Sequence record: MN850622.1
DNA length: 64,000 bases
Origin: Escherichia phage mobillu
Reading direction: 5' to 3' (one strand)
The translations under genes and the position numbers were made by a program. Within the stretch, counting starts at the first letter, position 1, and each line of letters starts with the position of its first letter. A model generated the notes under the pieces. It was not told where the DNA came from. It was given only the letters and a program-made list of their open reading frames with translations, and ran no database searches. Of the stretch, positions 3,634 to 63,952 are shown in pieces.

Positions 3634-4093
3634 AAACTATATCAAGGGCGATATTGTCGCCCTGTTTTCTAAAGGTAATAATATTGCTCATGGGTGTAAT
3701 TGTTTTCATACAATGGGCGCCGGTGTAGCAGGACAATTAGCAAAGGCTTATCCAAAAATTCTTGAAGCAGATAAACTTCAAACCGAATTCGGAGACAAGT
3801 CTAAACTCGGGACTTATTCGGTTTATGAAAAATATTTTAAGACCCATAAAGCTTATTGCTTTAATCTTTATACACAGTTTGAGCCGGGACCTAATTTTGA
3901 GTACTCTGCTTTAATGAATTGTATAATAGAATTAAATGAATTCGGAAAGAATAAGATAACAAAGCCTGTAATTTATATGCCAAGAATTGGTGCAGGTATT
4001 GGTGGTGGAAACTGGGATGTCATCGAAGAGATTTTAGATACGTATTCTACTAAACTAGAAATTGTGATTGTTGATTGGGAACCGTTATTATGA
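3596..4093 (+). CDS. macro-domain protein (ADP-ribose binding/processing family)
   Basis: GDIV...N.AHGCN...GAGVAGQ and later GIGGG segments resemble macro-domain motifs; overlaps upstream ORF by 38 nt. Confidence 0.55.
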   Translation: MTLIIEDLQQVIKNYIKGDIVALFSKGNNIAHGCNCFHTMGAGVAGQLAKAYPKILEADKLQTEFGDKSKLGTYSVYEKYFKTHKAYCFNLYTQFEPGPNFEYSALMNCIIELNEFGKNKITKPVIYMPRIGAGIGGGNWDVIEEILDTYSTKLEIVIVDWEPLL

Positions 4094-7684: not shown

Positions 7685-8670
7685 TGAAAACGATTGTTAA
7701 GGCTTACTTTGGTAGCCACCTTTATGGAACGTCTACTCCTGAATCTGACGTCGATTTTAAAGAAATTTATGTCCCTCATGCTCGTGATATCTTGACCGGT
7801 AACGTTAAAGAACACATGAGCAAGAACACGAATAACACATCTTCTAAGAACACAAAAGACGACGTGGACCATGAGTTGTATAGTCTCAAATATTTCTTTA
7901 AACTAGCTGCGGATGGTGAAACCGTCGCATTAGATATGCTTCACACTCCACAAAGTCTAGTAGTTAAATCTGATTTGCCTGATGTATGGAAGTATATTCA
8001 AGATAACAGGTCTCGTTTCTATACCACTAACATGAAATCTTATTTAGGGTATGTCCGTAAGCAAGCTTCTAAATACGGTGTCAAGGGTTCTCGACTGGCT
8101 GTTCTTCGTCAAGCCCTTAAACGTTCTAATGAATGGGGACAATACTTTGATAATGGTGCAGTAATTCGTTTATCACATATGAAGAATGTTCTGCCTGTAG
8201 GTGAATTTGCTTCATGGGTTGAAACCGAAAACGAGAAAACAGGTAAGCAAACATTCTATAATCTGTTAGACCGTAAATTCCAAGACACATTAACCAATAA
8301 AGAGTTCAATGCCATCCTGGTTAAACTGGAAGAGAACTATGGTGAACGTGCTCGTAAGGCAGAAGCCAACGAAGGTATTGACTGGAAAGCATTGAGTCAT
8401 GCATGTCGTGGTGGACTTCAACTATTGGAAATTTACAAAACCGGCGACCTGGTTTACCCACTTCAGGATGCTCCATTTATTCTCGATGTTAAGCTTGGTA
8501 AACATACGTTTAAAACTGTACAAGAATTCCTAGAAGATATCGTTGACCAAGTTGAACATGCGTCAGAACAAGCCGCTAAGAACGGTATGCAACAAAAAGT
8601 AGATATGAGTTTCTGGGATGATTTCCTTGAGCAAGTCTATCTCGAAAATCATAATTCTTACTATAAATAA
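7681..8670 (+). CDS. Pol-beta-superfamily nucleotidyltransferase-like protein
   Basis: N-terminal GS-x9-SDVD motif (YFGSHLYGTSTPESDVDF). Confidence 0.55.
   Translation: MMKTIVKAYFGSHLYGTSTPESDVDFKEIYVPHARDILTGNVKEHMSKNTNNTSSKNTKDDVDHELYSLKYFFKLAADGETVALDMLHTPQSLVVKSDLPDVWKYIQDNRSRFYTTNMKSYLGYVRKQASKYGVKGSRLAVLRQALKRSNEWGQYFDNGAVIRLSHMKNVLPVGEFASWVETENEKTGKQTFYNLLDRKFQDTLTNKEFNAILVKLEENYGERARKAEANEGIDWKALSHACRGGLQLLEIYKTGDLVYPLQDAPFILDVKLGKHTFKTVQEFLEDIVDQVEHASEQAAKNGMQQKVDMSFWDDFLEQVYLENHNSYYK
8663..8670 (+). promoter_or_regulatory. candidate T4 late promoter (TATAAATA)
   Basis: Exact TATAAATA about 32 nt upstream of ATG 8702. Confidence 0.35.
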
Positions 8671-55081: not shown

Positions 55082-55576
55082 ATGAATATCAATACTACGG
55101 CTACTTACATCCTGAAAGACGAAAAACAAATCAACTGGTACGGTGCTTCAGTGCGAGCTTATGAAAAGTTTTGTGAAATTTTAGGTGCCACTCAAGGTAA
55201 TAGTTTCACTATTGTTAACTTCATCAAACAAGCTGAAGGCCCTTGGTTATTCTTAGAAATTAAAAATTCATACGGTACAATTTCTACTGCCGCCCTTCCA
55301 AGCACCGACTTTGAACTGTTGATTGAAGAAGTAGAACCTGTTAAAGACATCTGTATTGATATGGATATCGCTTGTATGTACGGTACTCTGATTAAGCCTA
55401 TTGAGCCTACTGATTTGTTGTGTAAATATGTTTCAATTCGACGACCGTTCGCTGGTCCAGTAAATGGCTGGGTGTCTGACCAGTGGATTGAAGAAGGTGT
55501 TGAACTTCTGAACGTTGTTCATGCAGGTGATTTTAGTGTAGTTCCACGTAGTGCTGTGGTTAATATCCTTAATTAA
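55082..55576 (+). CDS. hypothetical protein, paralog family member A
   Basis: 164 aa; C-terminal GWVSDQWIEEGVELLNVVHAGDFSVV shared with next two ORFs. Confidence 0.6.
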   Translation: MNINTTATYILKDEKQINWYGASVRAYEKFCEILGATQGNSFTIVNFIKQAEGPWLFLEIKNSYGTISTAALPSTDFELLIEEVEPVKDICIDMDIACMYGTLIKPIEPTDLLCKYVSIRRPFAGPVNGWVSDQWIEEGVELLNVVHAGDFSVVPRSAVVNILN

Positions 55577-55578
55577 TG

Positions 55579-55608
55579 TTGTACATCCAAGGATGGATGG
55601 AGTATAGT
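55579..55608 (+). promoter_or_regulatory. early promoter cassette variant
   Basis: TTGTAC-ATCCAAGGATGGATGGAG-TATAGT. Confidence 0.5.
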
Positions 55609-55638
55609 GAATTCAATTTAAACAAAGAGAGAGAAATT

Positions 55639-56094
55639 ATGATTGCTATTGGTGAAATTAAGCGTGTATCGTCTGCATCTCGTTCTAAAGCTGCAGGTCG
55701 TCTAGTTGAAGTGGTAGGACTTCGTACTAATGGTACTGGTCGTGTTAAAGAAGTTAAAGTTCGAATCATTCCTAGTTCTGGAAAAACTGAAACTCAGTAC
55801 GCTTACGTAAGTCCTAAATTTTTGGAAACTCATGTGAGCGCTCATTTTGCTTCTACTGAACCTAATGCACAGTTCAAATGGGCCCTTTGCAAAGGTGTTG
55901 AATTCCAGACTGATAAAGAATTTGACTTCATCGATGAATATGGTTATCCAAGCAAAACTGATACTATGTGTGGCTTCATTAGTGACCAATGGGTTGAAGA
56001 TGGTGAAAAGTTATACAATATCGTATTCTTAGGTGACTTCCGAGTTGTTAAAGAATCTGAAATCACTCGCTATGTGTCTCCTCGTAAAGCTTAA
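55639..56094 (+). CDS. hypothetical protein, paralog family member B
   Basis: ORF 55576..56094 begins inside the promoter; start placed at ATG 55639 after GAGAGAG; shares N- and C-terminal motifs with 56104 ORF. Confidence 0.6.
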   Translation: MIAIGEIKRVSSASRSKAAGRLVEVVGLRTNGTGRVKEVKVRIIPSSGKTETQYAYVSPKFLETHVSAHFASTEPNAQFKWALCKGVEFQTDKEFDFIDEYGYPSKTDTMCGFISDQWVEDGEKLYNIVFLGDFRVVKESEITRYVSPRKA

Positions 56095-56103
56095 GGAATT
56101 ATT

Positions 56104-56523
56104 ATGAATATTGTAAATCTCTCTACAGGTGATTACGTATATGTATCCGTTGCTTCTCGCTCTAAAGTTGCCGGGAAGTTGGTTGAAGTTCTTTCTGTGA
56201 GTGATCCGGTTTTTGGACGTAACGAAGTTAAAGTTCGTGACGCTGATGGTAACATTGGTTATGTCTCAAGCCAATTCATTGAACCAGAAGAAAAAGCGTT
56301 CAAATGGGGACTATGCAGATCAGTTTCTGTTGAAAAAGACCATGAATTCACTATTGCTGCGGCAACTGATGGAACACCGTGGAAAACTAAGCAAATCGCC
56401 GGATTTATTAGCGACCGTTGGGTAGAAGATGGTGTTAAGCTTTATAACATCGTTTTCGCTGGACAGTTCATGGTAGTTCCTGAATTCCAAATTAAAAAAT
56501 ATAGCCCAGCTGCTTTTGCATAA
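56104..56523 (+). CDS. hypothetical protein, paralog family member C
   Basis: 139 aa; SRSK.AG.LVEV and GFISD.WVEDG..LYNIVF.G.F.VV shared with member B. Confidence 0.6.
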   Translation: MNIVNLSTGDYVYVSVASRSKVAGKLVEVLSVSDPVFGRNEVKVRDADGNIGYVSSQFIEPEEKAFKWGLCRSVSVEKDHEFTIAAATDGTPWKTKQIAGFISDRWVEDGVKLYNIVFAGQFMVVPEFQIKKYSPAAFA

Positions 56524-57164: not shown

Positions 57165-57392
57165 ATGAAACGTCAAATCATTAAAAACGTAACTACTGAT
57201 TCAAACATCGATGAGTTTGAAGATGTTCTGTTTAATCCTGATTTAGTTGTTGTACAGAAAAACTGGACTGAATTTTTATGCTACACTGAAGTGGTTTACG
57301 TTTACGAAAAACTCGGCGATGAAATGCCTATCTATGGTATCTTCCGTGAAATCACTGAAAATGGTACAACTTATTGGAAGGAAACTTACTAA
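57165..57392 (+). CDS. hypothetical protein
   Basis: ORF 57120..57392, start placed at ATG 57165 after GAGGAG. Confidence 0.5.
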
Positions 57393-57805
57393 TGGCTAAT
57401 AAATTCCGCGTTAACTCATGGTACCAATTTAAAGATAAACGTGCCCAAGAAGAGTTTATTAAAGACCACACTGATAATGGGATTTATGCACGACGTCTTG
57501 GCATGGAACCATTTAAAGTATTAGATGTTGACCATCTTGGTCGTCCTACTAAAATTGTGACATCTACTGGCACGGTTGGATACGCAACAGGCGGTGATAT
57601 CCTTGATGAAAACTTTATCTGGCTCTCCACGAATGAAGCAGAATTCTTTGACGAAGTTGGAAATCCATATCAAGCGTCCGAAGAGCAAGATTCTGGTGAA
57701 CTTGATGAATTGTCTGAATTTCCGGTGATGACGATTACTATCGAAAATAACGACCAGGCATGGTCTTTGTATCAAATGTTGAAAGCTCACTTTAAGGAAC
57801 AATAA
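57392..57805 (+). CDS. hypothetical protein
   Basis: ORF 57374..57805, start at ATG 57392 (TAATG coupling). Confidence 0.5.
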
Positions 57806-57984
57806 TGCCGTTATACGACTATAAATGTCAATCTGAAGATTGTGGTCATGAATATGAAAAAATTAAAAGAATTTCTGAACGAGAAAACGATGTTTGCCTT
57901 GAATGTCATCGTCTGTCTACTCGTCGGGTTTCTGCTCCTAAACATGTGAACGGTGGTTTTTACGACTTACTTAAGAAGGGTTAA
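57805..57984 (+). CDS. hypothetical zinc-ribbon small protein (59 aa)
   Basis: C-x4-C ... C-x2-H pattern (YKCQSEDCGH...CLECH); TAATG coupling; below ORF-track cutoff. Confidence 0.45.
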   Translation: MPLYDYKCQSEDCGHEYEKIKRISERENDVCLECHRLSTRRVSAPKHVNGGFYDLLKKG

Positions 57985-57986
57985 TT

Positions 57987-58409
57987 ATGGCTTTTAAAGG
58001 TTTTGAAGTTGGTAAGAAATATCGTATTATCAAAGGACAGGAAGATAATTTCTTGAGAATTCTTAATACGACTGGTAAACGTCTTAACACTACTCTGCAT
58101 ACAGTTTTATTATCAAGAGATTTTATTGTAGAAGAGATGATTGGTTATGGTGTTTCAATGATTGCCGCTGAAACCGATGGACCTGGACGTACAATCATTA
58201 GTATGCAAGGTGATATTCTAATTTACGGTGCAGAATTTAAATTCTTTGAAGAAGTTCCTGAATCAGATACAGCCGTAGATTTCAAAAAAGGCTCTATAGA
58301 ATTTGTTGATGGTTCGGTGATCGTATCAGGTGATGTGGTCATTACAGTTAAAAGTGAACAAGGGCGTTTGGCTGCAATTGATGCACTTCAGAAAATTAAA
58401 TTTAAATAA
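57987..58409 (+). CDS. hypothetical protein
   Basis: ORF 140 aa, followed by terminator. Confidence 0.55.
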   Translation: MAFKGFEVGKKYRIIKGQEDNFLRILNTTGKRLNTTLHTVLLSRDFIVEEMIGYGVSMIAAETDGPGRTIISMQGDILIYGAEFKFFEEVPESDTAVDFKKGSIEFVDGSVIVSGDVVITVKSEQGRLAAIDALQKIKFK

Positions 58410-58427
58410 GGGCTTCGGCCCTTTTTG
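58408..58427 (+). terminator. rho-independent terminator
   Basis: AAGGGC-TTCG-GCCCTT followed by TTT. Confidence 0.75.
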
Positions 58428-58472
58428 CTTTAGATTTCGGATGATAGAATACCTTCATAACGAGGAGACAAC

Positions 58473-60290
58473 ATGATTAAAAATGAAATTAAGGTATTGT
58501 CAGATGTAGAACATATTAAGAAACGTAGTGGTATGTATATTGGTTCTTCGGCTAAAGAAGCCCACGAGCGTTTTTTGTTTGGTAAATATCAACAAGTTGA
58601 ATATGTTCCTGGTCTGGTTAAATTAATCGATGAGATTATTGACAACTCGGTTGATGAAGCTATTCGTACATCATTTAAGTTTGCAAATAAAATTGATGTG
58701 CAAATTAAAAATAATCAAGTTTCGGTGGAAGATAACGGACGTGGTATTCCTCAAGGTTTAGTTACCGACCAAACAGGTGAACAAATTCCTGGACCTGTAG
58801 CAGCCTGGACTATTCCAAAGGCCGGTGGTAACTTTGGTGATGACTCTGAACGCAAGACTGGTGGTATGAACGGCGTCGGGAGTAGTTTAACTAATATCTT
58901 CTCTACGTTGTTTACAGGCATCACGTCAGATGGCGAAAACGAAATCACTGTTAACTGTTCAAACGGAATGGAAAACAAATCATGGTCTTCTAAGAAATCT
59001 AAAGGTAAAGGCACTAAAGTAATCTTCACTCCTGATTTCTCTTCATTTGAAGAGCATAATTTATCTCAAATTTATTTAGATATTACTTTAGACCGACTTC
59101 AAACATTGGCAGTCGTTTATCCTGATATCAAGTTCACATTTAATGGTAAAAAGGTTGATGGTAATTTTAAACGATTTGCTAAACAATTTGGCGAAGATAA
59201 CATCATTCAAGAAAATGATAAAGTCTCTATAGCATTCACAACATCACCAGATGGCTTCCGTCATTTAACTTATGTGAATAACATCCATACTAAAAATGGT
59301 GGTCATCATGTTGAATGTGTAATGGATGATATCTGTGAACATCTTTTGCCTGGTATTAAAAAGAAATATAAGGGTATTGAAGTCACTAAAGCTCGTGTTA
59401 AAGAATGTCTCACAATGTTGATGTTTATTAGAGACATGAGCAACATGCGTTTTGATTCTCAGACTAAAGAACGTTTAACGTCAACGTATGGTGATATTCG
59501 TAATCATATCCAATTAGATGCTAAGAAAATTGCTCAGGCACTTCTTAAAAACGAAGCCTTGATTATGCCTATTGTTGAAGCAGCATTAGCTCGTAAATTG
59601 GCAGCAGAAAAGGCTGCAGAAACTAAAGCAGCTAAAAAGGCAACTAAAGCTAAGGTTCATAAGCATATTAAAGCTAACCAATGTGGTAAAGATGCAGATA
59701 CGACATTGTTTTTAACAGAAGGTGATTCGGCAATTGGTTATCTCATTGATGTTCGTGACCGTGAACTACACGGCGGATTCCCATTACGTGGTAAGGTGAT
59801 GAATAGCTGGGGTATGTCATATGCTGATATGATGAAGAACAAAGAGCTCTTTGATATCTGTGCTATCACGGGTCTTATTCTTGGTGAAAAGGCAGAGAAT
59901 ACGAACTATCGTAATATTGCAATTATGACCGATGCCGATCATGACGGTCTTGGAAGTATTTATCCGGCTTTGCTTGCTTTCTTTAGTAATTGGCCTGAAT
60001 TGTTTGAACAAGGACGTATTCGCTTTGTTAAAACGCCTGTAATTATTGCACAAATTGGCAAAACTCAAAAATGGTTTTATACTGTAGCTGAGTATGAAGA
60101 AGTTAAAGATACACTGCCTAAGCATAGTATTAGATACATCAAGGGATTAGGCTCCCTTGAAAAGTCAGAATATCGTGAAATGATTCAGAACCCTGTGTAC
60201 GACGTAGTTAAACTTCCTGAAAATTGGAAAGAACTCTTTGAAATGTTGATGGGTGATGATTCAGAACTTCGTAAAGAATGGATGTCCTAA
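58473..60290 (+). CDS. 39: DNA topoisomerase II large subunit, fused gp39/gp60 form (GyrB-like ATPase + TOPRIM)
   Basis: 605 aa; GHKL ATPase motifs (DNSVDE, DNGRGIP, GGMNGVGSS) plus TOPRIM LFLTEGDSA and DADHDG in one continuous frame. Confidence 0.9.
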   Translation: MIKNEIKVLSDVEHIKKRSGMYIGSSAKEAHERFLFGKYQQVEYVPGLVKLIDEIIDNSVDEAIRTSFKFANKIDVQIKNNQVSVEDNGRGIPQGLVTDQTGEQIPGPVAAWTIPKAGGNFGDDSERKTGGMNGVGSSLTNIFSTLFTGITSDGENEITVNCSNGMENKSWSSKKSKGKGTKVIFTPDFSSFEEHNLSQIYLDITLDRLQTLAVVYPDIKFTFNGKKVDGNFKRFAKQFGEDNIIQENDKVSIAFTTSPDGFRHLTYVNNIHTKNGGHHVECVMDDICEHLLPGIKKKYKGIEVTKARVKECLTMLMFIRDMSNMRFDSQTKERLTSTYGDIRNHIQLDAKKIAQALLKNEALIMPIVEAALARKLAAEKAAETKAAKKATKAKVHKHIKANQCGKDADTTLFLTEGDSAIGYLIDVRDRELHGGFPLRGKVMNSWGMSYADMMKNKELFDICAITGLILGEKAENTNYRNIAIMTDADHDGLGSIYPALLAFFSNWPELFEQGRIRFVKTPVIIAQIGKTQKWFYTVAEYEEVKDTLPKHSIRYIKGLGSLEKSEYREMIQNPVYDVVKLPENWKELFEMLMGDDSELRKEWMS

Positions 60291-60312
60291 GCTCCTTCGG
60301 GAGCTTCATTTT
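60290..60312 (+). terminator. candidate rho-independent terminator
   Basis: AGCTCC-TTCG-GGAGCT followed by TCATTTT. Confidence 0.55.
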
Positions 60313-60332
60313 AATTTTAATAAGGCTTAATT

Positions 60333-61433
60333 ATGAAAGTTATGTTTATCCCATCTCGCGCAGTCCCATTTAACCCAGAACGTGTACAAGGTGGTCTTGA
60401 AGCAGTACATTTAAATGTGTTGAAATATCTTGTGTCCATCGGTGCTGATATTGATTATATCGGCTTTGATAATGACACGTTTGGTGACTGGAAGGTTAAT
60501 CATCATCCTGTTGGTCATCTGACTAAATTCAGTCTAGGTATGAGTTATACTATGGCTCGTAAGATTGTTGAACTAGCCGGCATTAATGAGTACGATTTCG
60601 TTGTTACAATGGAACCGACCAAACTAACCGTTCAGGCAATTAAAGACGCAGGTCTCTCTAAAGTTCATAAGAATTTTATGGCAACACCATTTGAACCAGT
60701 ATCTCGTGGCATTGTTCAAATTTGGGACCAGACTATTCAAATTCATAAGAACGGTGGTAAGAGTTATGCTCCTACTAAAGCCTTCCGTGAATTTGAACGC
60801 AAATATTGTTATATGACTTCAGGTCTGACTGACAAAATTGATTATGATTATTGGCGAGCAAATCCGTTGTTTGAAGCCGAAGATTATCCGGTTATTTGTT
60901 TGAATGATAAACCTGAAGTTCTTCCGGCGACTGATCTGATTATTAGTGCACAACGTTATGACACTAAAATGCGTCGTACTGATGTTGCTCTTGAAGCGAT
61001 TAAAGCACTAGGCGAAAATGGTGCAGGATACTGTCCTAGTAAATGGGCACCACCAGCTAAATATCCTGTTATTATTGATGCTCCACACAGTGAAATCATG
61101 GAACGTCTTAAAATGGCTAAAGCACTTATTAATACGTGTCCTGACACAGGTACGGTAGAGAATAGTTCTATTGAAGCCATCTCTAAAGGTGTCCCTGTAA
61201 TCCAGTTAGTTTTTAAGGATTATCCTCATGCGACATTCGAATACGACCCGGATACTGTGCGTGTAGAAATTGATTCCTCTACTCCTAAGAAAGAAGTAGT
61301 TGCGCTTTACACAAAAGCTGTATTAGAATTCACTGACACATACGAAGCTCGAGTTAAACGTGCTGAAGCAGTATGGAAGAAATATAATCGAGATGCAGTT
61401 GTTGCGATGTGGGATAAAATCTTCACAGCGTAA
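60333..61433 (+). CDS. GT-B fold glycosyltransferase (GT4-like); candidate DNA (hmC) sugar transferase
   Basis: 366 aa; N-terminal MKVMFIPSRA..GGLEAVHLNVLKYL and C-terminal ENSSIEAISKGVPVI resemble GT4 signature regions. Confidence 0.65.
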   Translation: MKVMFIPSRAVPFNPERVQGGLEAVHLNVLKYLVSIGADIDYIGFDNDTFGDWKVNHHPVGHLTKFSLGMSYTMARKIVELAGINEYDFVVTMEPTKLTVQAIKDAGLSKVHKNFMATPFEPVSRGIVQIWDQTIQIHKNGGKSYAPTKAFREFERKYCYMTSGLTDKIDYDYWRANPLFEAEDYPVICLNDKPEVLPATDLIISAQRYDTKMRRTDVALEAIKALGENGAGYCPSKWAPPAKYPVIIDAPHSEIMERLKMAKALINTCPDTGTVENSSIEAISKGVPVIQLVFKDYPHATFEYDPDTVRVEIDSSTPKKEVVALYTKAVLEFTDTYEARVKRAEAVWKKYNRDAVVAMWDKIFTA

Positions 61434-61525
61434 ATCCTGAATAGCCTGAGGCACTATTACACATAAGATGATAGATTATATGGTCTTTAGTAATAGTGCC
61501 CTAGGAATCTACTGAAGAGAATATT

Positions 61526-61726
61526 ATGAGAACATATAACGTGGACTTGGAACTTTTTGATAAAGCAGTGCTCCGGGAATTCCGGCTTATCCAAAGATTT
61601 TTTGATATCGAATCAGCAGAGTCCTTTAAAGAACGCTTTAAAGAAATTCGATATAAAATACAAACCGATACAGCTACTAAAGAAGAACTTCTTGAAGTAG
61701 CAGAAATTTTTAAACGTAACTTGTGA
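61526..61726 (+). CDS. hypothetical protein (rIIA.1 position)
   Basis: ORF 66 aa upstream of rIIA. Confidence 0.5.
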   Translation: MRTYNVDLELFDKAVLREFRLIQRFFDIESAESFKERFKEIRYKIQTDTATKEELLEVAEIFKRNL

Positions 61727-61738
61727 TGAGAGAAAAAT

Positions 61739-63952
61739 ATGATTATTGAAACGGCTAAAGAAACGATTATTGGTTCTGGTGGTAAAAGCACAGCATTTAC
61801 TATTCAAGGCAATAGCAAAGTTTATAAGATTTTGTCTAATGACCTTTATACAAACAAAGAATTGGCTTGTGTACGTGAATTAATCACAAACTGTATTGAT
61901 GGGCAAATTCTTAATGGTTGCACTGATAAGTTTATTGTTCAGGCACCAGGTCGTTTAGACCCACGTTTTGTAGTTCGAGACTTTGGTCCTGGTATGAGTG
62001 ATTTCACCATTCGAGGTAATGACGAAGAGCCAGGAATTTATAACTCATATTTTGCTTCAACTAAAACATCGAGTAACGATTTCATTGGTGGATTCGGACT
62101 CGGCTCTAAAGCTCCATTAGCATATACCGATACGTTTAACCTTACGTCTTATCACAACGGCGAAGTTCGTGGTTACGTAATCTACCAAGATGACACGGGT
62201 CCACAAATTAAGCCGACCTTTGTAGATAAGATGGGTCCTGATGACCGTACTGGTGTAGAAGTAGTCGTACCGGTTAACCCGGAAGATTTTGAAAAGTTTG
62301 CATCCGAAATTGCGTATGTTATGCGTCCTCTAGGTGATATTGCAGAAGTTCGTGGTGTTAAAGATATTAAATACTTCCCTGAATTTGACGATGTATATTT
62401 GGCCAAGGAAGCTCCATGGGGTGAACGCGGTAATATCATGGCTGTTTACGGTGGTATTGTATATCCAATCGGAAGTGTTATTAAAGAACAAACATGGATG
62501 ATGACGCGATGCACTACAGCTTATATTAAATTCCCTATGGGTGAACTAGATGTAGCTCCGTCTCGTGAAGCATTGTCATTTGATAAACGTACGGTAGCAA
62601 ATATCCATAAACGCGTTGCAGAAATCGATGCTAAATTGTTCGCTGAAGATTCTAAGAAATGGATTGATTGTAAATACCCACGTCATGTGTTCCGTGAAAT
62701 TGATTCTCTTGGCTATACCGCTCGTAAATACATGGAAAAGGCTGGGTCTAATATTGAATCACTGAAATACTCTAAAGAACAACTAACTTATTCTGAGTTG
62801 TACAAACGTTTTAAAATGGGGCCTGAGTGGTGTAATCTTGGCGTCGTATATGATATCGTTGAATCCCCTCGTCTTCGTCGTATTCGTGAAAGTGGTAGCT
62901 CAACGGCAACCATTTCAATTAACAGTCTGATTGGCATTAACATTAAAAACGTTGAAATTGTTATTGACGACGTTAAGGGACGCGTTCCATTAATGCGAGC
63001 TCTTAATTCAATTGAAATGTCTAAAGACGAGGTTAAATTAACTGGTAAAGTTCCACGCGGTTTTGGTAAAAGCGTACTATTCGTTGACCCTACAGACGAA
63101 GATGCAATGAAACTTCTGGAACGCCTTAAAGTTATCTTTGTTGGCGACAACATTAACATGTACAAGACTTCAGAGCTTTTACAAATCGTTAAGCCATGGA
63201 TTGAAGTCAGGAAACGAACTAATGAGCCTCGTCCTAAATCGCCAAGTGCTCATCGATTCTTTAAGAATGAAAACGATGTTTGGGTATCAGAAGACCTCTT
63301 TATTCCGGCAAGTGAAGCAGATGAAATCCAAGGTTATGCTATAGTTCGTAATCGTTCTAATGCTGAATGTCTTGATGCAGATAAAGGTTGGTTGAACTAT
63401 GACTCTAATTTCTTGACCCGTATTGCTGATTTGTCAGATATTAAAGAGTTCACTGTAGTCCGTCCACAGATTGCTAAGAAAGTTCGTAAACTTGGTGAAG
63501 TAGAATGCTTGTTCGAAAAATCAATTAATGACTATATTACGCTAATCGATAAAGTAGATTATGATGAGTATGTATCACCAAGTCGTAGAGCACAGCCCTA
63601 TCTAAACCATATTACTCGTAATGAAGAGCTTAACTTCCTTAGTAAGTATTTTAGCTCTAAGAACAAAGAAATCAGTAAAGATTTTGCAAAACTCTCCACA
63701 GTAAATAATCGCTGGGGATGGAATCGATTCGCAGGTGCTACTAATACAGACCTGAATAAGAAGTTAGAATTGTGTGCTAAAATTTTCGATAAGCTTAAAG
63801 ATAATGCTTACGATAATGATGATAAAATGGTTATTGAATTCGAAACCAATTATCATATTGTGACAGAATACATGGGACGACGTGGTACTCTTTCAAAAGA
63901 ACAGGTCGCTCAAATCGTTAAATTCATGAAGGCCGTGGAAGCGGCCAAATAA
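61739..63952 (+). CDS. rIIA: rIIA membrane-associated protein
   Basis: 737 aa; followed directly by rIIB start; N-terminal GHKL-like region; size and synteny. Confidence 0.85.
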   Translation: MIIETAKETIIGSGGKSTAFTIQGNSKVYKILSNDLYTNKELACVRELITNCIDGQILNGCTDKFIVQAPGRLDPRFVVRDFGPGMSDFTIRGNDEEPGIYNSYFASTKTSSNDFIGGFGLGSKAPLAYTDTFNLTSYHNGEVRGYVIYQDDTGPQIKPTFVDKMGPDDRTGVEVVVPVNPEDFEKFASEIAYVMRPLGDIAEVRGVKDIKYFPEFDDVYLAKEAPWGERGNIMAVYGGIVYPIGSVIKEQTWMMTRCTTAYIKFPMGELDVAPSREALSFDKRTVANIHKRVAEIDAKLFAEDSKKWIDCKYPRHVFREIDSLGYTARKYMEKAGSNIESLKYSKEQLTYSELYKRFKMGPEWCNLGVVYDIVESPRLRRIRESGSSTATISINSLIGINIKNVEIVIDDVKGRVPLMRALNSIEMSKDEVKLTGKVPRGFGKSVLFVDPTDEDAMKLLERLKVIFVGDNINMYKTSELLQIVKPWIEVRKRTNEPRPKSPSAHRFFKNENDVWVSEDLFIPASEADEIQGYAIVRNRSNAECLDADKGWLNYDSNFLTRIADLSDIKEFTVVRPQIAKKVRKLGEVECLFEKSINDYITLIDKVDYDEYVSPSRRAQPYLNHITRNEELNFLSKYFSSKNKEISKDFAKLSTVNNRWGWNRFAGATNTDLNKKLELCAKIFDKLKDNAYDNDDKMVIEFETNYHIVTEYMGRRGTLSKEQVAQIVKFMKAVEAAK

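Follow-up and report, generated by a model that had tools for sequence, protein, structure and literature searches.

In phage T4, the protein corresponding to the large subunit of the T-even type II topoisomerase (Topo II) is made as two pieces, gp39 and gp60, with the result that the TOPRIM glutamate (in the EGDSA motif of gp39) and the DxD metal-binding element lie on different polypeptides. The two homologous blocks of the gene are separated there by a 997-nt insert made up of the sequence coding for the 43 C-terminal residues of gp39, the mobA pseudogene, 60.1, and the sequence for the first 26 residues of gp60; a 50-nt coding gap follows after GGA46-TAG in gene 60, and all of these parts are specific to T4 in the comparison presented here. 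Insertion of mobA is described as splitting the topoisomerase gene "as compared to related phage" (Edgell et al., 2010), and the uninterrupted gene has been interpreted as the parental form, with the split mediated by MobA (Manning and Atkins, 2022). The MobA cassette is ~1.1 kb in size, adds an extension of ~44 aa to each half, swaps 55-75 nt of the gene for a homologous stretch, and carries at its end the bypass element, which shields the invaded gene from MobA (Manning and Atkins, 2022). In mixed infections MobA moves the cassette into T2 (Bonocora et al., 2011, as cited in Manning and Atkins, 2022). Cryo-EM work from 2024 on the enzymes of T6 and T4 (PDB 8ylu and 8yo3) describes the Topo II of T2 and T6 as composed of two subunits (gp39 and gp52) and that of T4 as composed of three, and demonstrates ATP-dependent relaxation or decatenation by the T6 and T4 enzymes. 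Hundreds of genomes have an annotated one-piece gene 39, the textbook counterpart to the split 39/60 of T4, and the structure of the equivalent T6 protein has been solved.

Against this background, we analyzed a 64,000-nt stretch of DNA from Escherichia phage mobillu (GenBank: MN850622.1; hereinafter the window), for which a sequence-only reading had proposed a Topo II large subunit encoded as a single 605-aa frame. Exactly at the proposed position, 58473..60290 on the + strand, we found one ATG-to-stop ORF of 605 aa plus the stop codon. The coding frame has no stop before the terminal one in its 1,818 nt, as compared with 32 and 101 stops in the two remaining forward frames; given these counts and a GC content of about 37% (~35-39% throughout the window), the open frame extends far beyond what is expected by chance. 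The start is likewise well supported, since a Shine-Dalgarno sequence GAGGAG (58462..58467, +), whose GAGGA core T4, T2, and phage JK45 share without change, lies 5 nt before the ATG, and since the N-terminus MIKNEIK agrees with that of T4 gp39. A profile search against PHROGs matched residues 1-605 in their entirety to phrog_543, "DNA topoisomerase II large subunit" (E = 2.3e-287), and the DNA of the gene is 99.0-99.6% identical to that in more than 20 phage records (including vB_EcoM_MM02, APCEc01, mar005P1, and JK45), almost all of which are annotated as Topo II large subunit. The local gene order, namely dexA, motB-like, cef, goF-like, 39.2-like zinc ribbon, 39, rIIA.1, and rIIA, is that of T4 and T2. 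We accordingly identify 58473..60290, with a probability of about 97%, as gene 39 of a T4-like coliphage of the JS09/APCEc01/mar005P1 group (Mosigvirus, a genus label taken only from record names such as Mosigvirus mar005p1, the taxonomy line of JK45 reading Tequatrovirus), coding in one polypeptide for a complete GyrB/ParE-like type IIA subunit that would partner with gp52 and having either escaped invasion by the MobA cassette or kept no trace of it. Nothing substantive was found against the gene 39 identity. We also considered a host-derived gyrB or parE origin and rejected it, as the best matches are all to phage gp39 and the synteny is T4-like. Within the window there is no second topoisomerase-like gene and tblastn recovered no match to T4 gp52; T4 gene 52 lies beyond rIIB, an equivalent position to which falls past the end of the window, and we assume from this synteny that the mobillu genome codes for gp52.

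The domain architecture of the predicted protein is that of a type IIA ATPase subunit. An N-terminal GHKL ATPase domain spans residues 47-189 (58611..59039, +; Pfam HATPase_c, E = 3.5e-11, 44 bits against a cut-off of 26.4) and is followed by a transducer domain at residues 249-385 (59217..59627, +; Pfam DNA_gyraseB, E = 2.8e-14, 53.4 bits against a cut-off of 27), which includes the QTK loop in the form QTKERL (residues 330-335). The motifs EGDSA and DADHDG had been cited in the sequence-only reading as marking the ATPase and TOPRIM regions; both are present, but both belong to the TOPRIM domain, and the ATP-binding motifs are instead DNGRGIP (residues 87-93) and GGMNGVG (residues 130-136). 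EGDSA, with the catalytic glutamate, occupies residues 416-420 (59718..59732, +), and DADHDG, the DxD motif, residues 487-492 (59931-59948, +), in the same chain and the same frame; the PLRGK motif is conserved as well. The Pfam TOPRIM_C match, at 27.8 bits, falls just short of the curated threshold of 29, and no match to the generic Pfam Toprim model was reported at E <= 0.001; the TOPRIM assignment consequently rests on the motifs together with the full-length T6 and T4 alignments, of which that to T6 gp39 (8ylu) spans the domain. By homology with the T6 enzyme, two copies of this subunit would combine with two of gp52, the GyrA-like cleavage subunit, to form an A2B2 enzyme that would pass one duplex through a transient double-strand break at the expense of ATP. 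Here, the ATPase N-gate and the transducer are predicted to couple ATP binding to strand passage, and E416 and D487/D489 of the TOPRIM domain to bind the catalytic metal beside the active-site tyrosine of gp52.

To compare the gene with its split counterpart, we took T4 gp39 and gp60 from NC_000866, with the 50-nt gap of gene 60 spliced out as annotated, and aligned them to the mobillu protein with BLASTP. Residues 1-474 correspond to T4 gp39 1-473 (79% identity) and residues 473-605 to T4 gp60 27-159 (87% identity, E = 8e-88). The frame is thus colinear with gp39 and then gp60 through to its C-terminus, as had been supposed, and the relationship to gp60 covers not only the C-terminal 90 aa but the last 133 residues. 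The gene 39 frame runs unbroken across the region that is interrupted twice in T4. The stretch equivalent to that replaced by the MobA cassette in T4, from A474 (the last gp39-homologous residue) to G492 (59895..59948, +), is intact and includes DADHDG; we identified it from the BLASTP block boundaries, the codon view, comparison with T2 DNA, and the published cassette anatomy, and as a presumptive MobA target region it is placed approximately, following the description of Manning and Atkins (2022). At the equivalent of the T4 gene 60 coding gap (59946..59951, +), codon-level comparison and DNA alignment with T4 show G492 (GGT) followed directly by L493 (CTT). The surrounding 59943-59957 reads GAC GGT CTT GGA AGT (D491, G492, L493, G494, S495) without a stop or an insert, and the counterpart of the T4 take-off GGA is the GGT at 59946-59948.

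We found no remnant of the T4 bypass element or of the rest of the cassette in the window. The T4 50-nt gap sequence has no significant match anywhere in it; with the 997-nt insert containing mobA as query, blastn-short returned short matches at chance level only and tblastx none; and the peptide tails of the T4 cassette (the C- and N-terminal extensions, CTE and NTE) gave best tblastn E-values of 0.77-1.4, at unrelated places. An HNH homing endonuclease gene (mobA) is absent from between the halves of gene 39, which form a single ORF in place of a split pair with C- and N-terminal extensions, and no coding gap in the style of gene 60, some 50 nt long and equipped with a matching pair of GGA codons for take-off and landing, a stop or hungry codon behind the take-off, and a take-off stem-loop, is present at the junction. 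Together with the colinearity to T4, this absence bears out the central proposal of the sequence-only reading, that the gene has neither the 39/60 split nor the bypass element and represents the unsplit state. The T4 arrangement arose when a MobA homing-endonuclease cassette with its 50-nt bypass element invaded the gene and separated the metal-binding elements; the mobillu gene is translated conventionally, since it was never invaded or at least bears no trace of invasion.

Among the closest characterized relatives, T2 gp39 is likewise a one-piece protein of equal length (605 aa) with the same domain order and motifs, to which the mobillu protein is identical at 498/605 positions (82%). The only indels are an extra glycine at residue 301 of the mobillu protein and the lack of the C-terminal Q; identity is 76-79% in the ATPase and transducer parts and rises to 92% in the TOPRIM and 90% in the C-terminal part. 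At the DNA level, the sequence coding for residues 466-500 is 80% identical to that of T2 with no indel. The T6 gp39 structure (PDB 8ylu, 611-aa chain) aligns end to end, residues 1-605 matching 1-604 of 8ylu_C with 1161 bits, and the artificially fused T4 gp39-gp60 chain (PDB 8yo3) is matched in two stretches. More distantly, the protein shares the architecture of GHKL, transducer, and TOPRIM domains with ParE/GyrB and the N-terminal half of eukaryotic Topo II (phmmer: human Topo II-alpha, E = 1e-61; ParE, 4e-48; GyrB, 1e-37). At 605 aa, it falls short of the roughly 804 aa of E. coli GyrB; the T4 Topo II relaxes DNA without supercoiling it, and mutants of T4 gene 39 are known for a DNA-delay phenotype.

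Gene 39 of T2 and T4 likewise precedes rIIA.1 and rIIA. In mobillu, a gene for a 366-aa arabinosyltransferase-like protein (60333-61433, +) separates gene 39 from rIIA.1, at a place where T4 and T2 have nothing. The protein has no Pfam match and falls in phrog_8302, a family without known function; it is 99.2% identical to its counterpart in Shigella phage Shf125875, which has been listed as a homologue of RB69 ORF003c, a proposed DNA arabinosyltransferase (Thomas et al., 2018). RB69 gp3 has been labelled "beta-arabinosyltransferase 2", acting on 5-hydroxycytosine DNA, in a 2026 NAR paper. In view of this match to homologues of the proposed RB69 ORF003c arabinosyltransferase, mobillu DNA probably carries arabinosylated cytosine. 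Acinetobacter phages have further homologues (42% identity), with two loci in each genome. In JK45, an extra 136-aa ORF (8054-8464 of that record), absent from the corresponding part of the window (61434-61525), lies between the 366-aa gene and rIIA.1; with the 366-aa protein as tblastn query, two JK45 pieces were joined for a sum of 1011 bits, compared with about 750 in other records, suggesting that part of the gene has been duplicated in that phage.

We also assessed how common the unsplit state is, using as tblastn query 90 residues across both T4 interruption points and scoring a record as continuous if a single place covered at least 80% of the query. By this measure, 1,854 of the 1,928 phage records matched (~96%) have a continuous junction, with T4 itself matching at two places. 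A megablast search with 401 nt around the junction gave a comparable picture, with 197/208 records continuous; the partial matches listed are from distant Acinetobacter phages, none being a close relative. The T4 insert is present in ~43 close relatives of T4; at a greater distance it also occurs in phages of the Salmonella S16-like, Proteus PM2, and Acinetobacter KARL-1 types. These clades agree with those of Manning and Atkins (2022). An intact MobA is encoded, for example, by phage HY01. Separately, the topoisomerase junction maps to two places in Acinetobacter phage LemonAid (OR608380.1), PQ885451.1, and Escherichia phage vB_Eco_F26 (OP870145.1), with a homing endonuclease annotated nearby in the first two; these are apparently additional split genes of the MobA type outside T4, in line with the published clades. 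The uninterrupted gene 39 is hence the ordinary condition and the split gene of T4 the oddity: the unsplit state in mobillu is neither new nor unusual but a common and previously described form, a point that the sequence-only reading had missed. The sole use of mobillu gene 39 is as an extra "parental" sequence for mapping the cassette insertion and as a possible naive target for cassette-spread experiments in a lineage with a different DNA modification.

An intact frame could in principle also be derived, the gene having once been split by a MobA/bypass cassette and then re-fused after cassette loss in a "hit and run" manner. Both progressive cassette loss and one Campylobacter-phage clade with secondarily fused ORFs are known (Manning and Atkins, 2022), but lineages that have passed through cassette loss retain the C- and N-terminal extensions, and cassette insertion costs 2-7 junction residues (Manning and Atkins, 2022), whereas the mobillu protein shows no similarity to the CTE or NTE and its junction aligns with that of T2 without an indel. 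As none of the listed near relatives has an interrupted junction either, we regard re-fusion as very improbable in comparison with the gene having simply remained uninterrupted. That the ORF, though intact, no longer codes for a working topoisomerase subunit, being a decaying or repurposed gene, is hardly credible: we found no point in favor of it, and it is at odds with the conservation of the ATP-binding motifs, the QTK loop, EGDSA, PLRGK, and DADHDG, with the particularly high T2 identity of the TOPRIM (92%) and C-terminal (90%) parts, with the 99% conservation over many independent isolates, and with the retention of a strong ribosome-binding site and conserved upstream signals.

A different question is whether the JS09/APCEc01-type (Mosigvirus) lineage as a whole is refractory to the MobA/bypass cassette despite its intact-looking target region. 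The junction is interrupted in 0 of ~160 close relatives of mobillu, and in T4's own group ~43 cassette-bearing records stand against ~449 T2-like uninterrupted ones; the naive probability of the 0/~160 pattern is 4e-7, a figure that greatly overstates the evidence, the records not being independent samples. The target stretch itself is 80% DNA-identical to that of the MobA-sensitive T2. A possible cause of the absence of the cassette is the arabinosylated-cytosine DNA of RB69-type phages, to which a genetic isolation of these phages from the other T-even phages has been attributed in a published proposal; however, that absence would also be accounted for if opportunities for co-infection were simply lacking or the recognition site had diverged, and we consider a refractory lineage unlikely.

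Gene 39 is flanked on both sides by hairpins closed with a C(UUCG)G tetraloop. The upstream one (AAGGGC TTCG GCCCTT, 58408..58423, +), detected in a terminator scan and by alignment with T4, T2, and JK45, is followed by a T-run and is conserved in T4 and T2; it would end the upstream goF-like gene. The downstream one (AAGCTCC TTCG GGAGCTT, 60289..60306, +), detected in the same kind of scan, overlaps the stop codon of gene 39 and has a T-rich tail. In 57700-61800, there are 9 terminator-like sites versus 2.3 expected. Between the upstream hairpin and the Shine-Dalgarno sequence lies an element resembling a T4 middle promoter (58424..58450, +), with a Mot-box-like TTTGCTTTA (58424-58432), a 12-nt spacer, and a -10 element TAGAAT (58445-58450), which, from the known MotA-box consensus, we take to be a putative MotA-dependent middle promoter. 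The same Mot-box/-10 layout precedes gene 39 in T4 and T2, and in T4 the hairpin, the promoter-like element, and the ribosome-binding site are laid out as in mobillu. Across the window there are 15 instances of the pattern TGCTTYA-N11-13-TANNNT versus 1.7 expected from shuffles, with 10/15 on the + strand (e.g., at 3907, 16668, 23972, 26665, 34176, 39352, 49414, and 58426), an excess that would be consistent with T4-type middle promoters across the early/middle gene region. Going by consensus only, both hairpins may function as terminators, and gene 39 may be transcribed from the upstream middle-type promoter.

Upstream of gene 39, two small groups of paralogous genes were recovered. The first comprises three tandem genes on the + strand (55082-55576, 55576-56094, and 56104-56523) with a common C-terminal motif, GFISDQWVEDG.KLYNIVF.G.F.VV. 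Two of them are matched over their full length by the MotB-like phrog_1671 and the third at its C-terminus only, its remainder matching phrog_2333; the JK45 record has two MotB-like genes annotated at this position. The second group consists of two goF-like paralogues (57374-57805 and 57987-58409, +), both matching phrog_622 and, more weakly, goF families, with a gene for a 59-aa FmdB-like zinc ribbon, the equivalent of 39.2, between them (57805-57984). T4 has a single goF where mobillu has these two paralogues.
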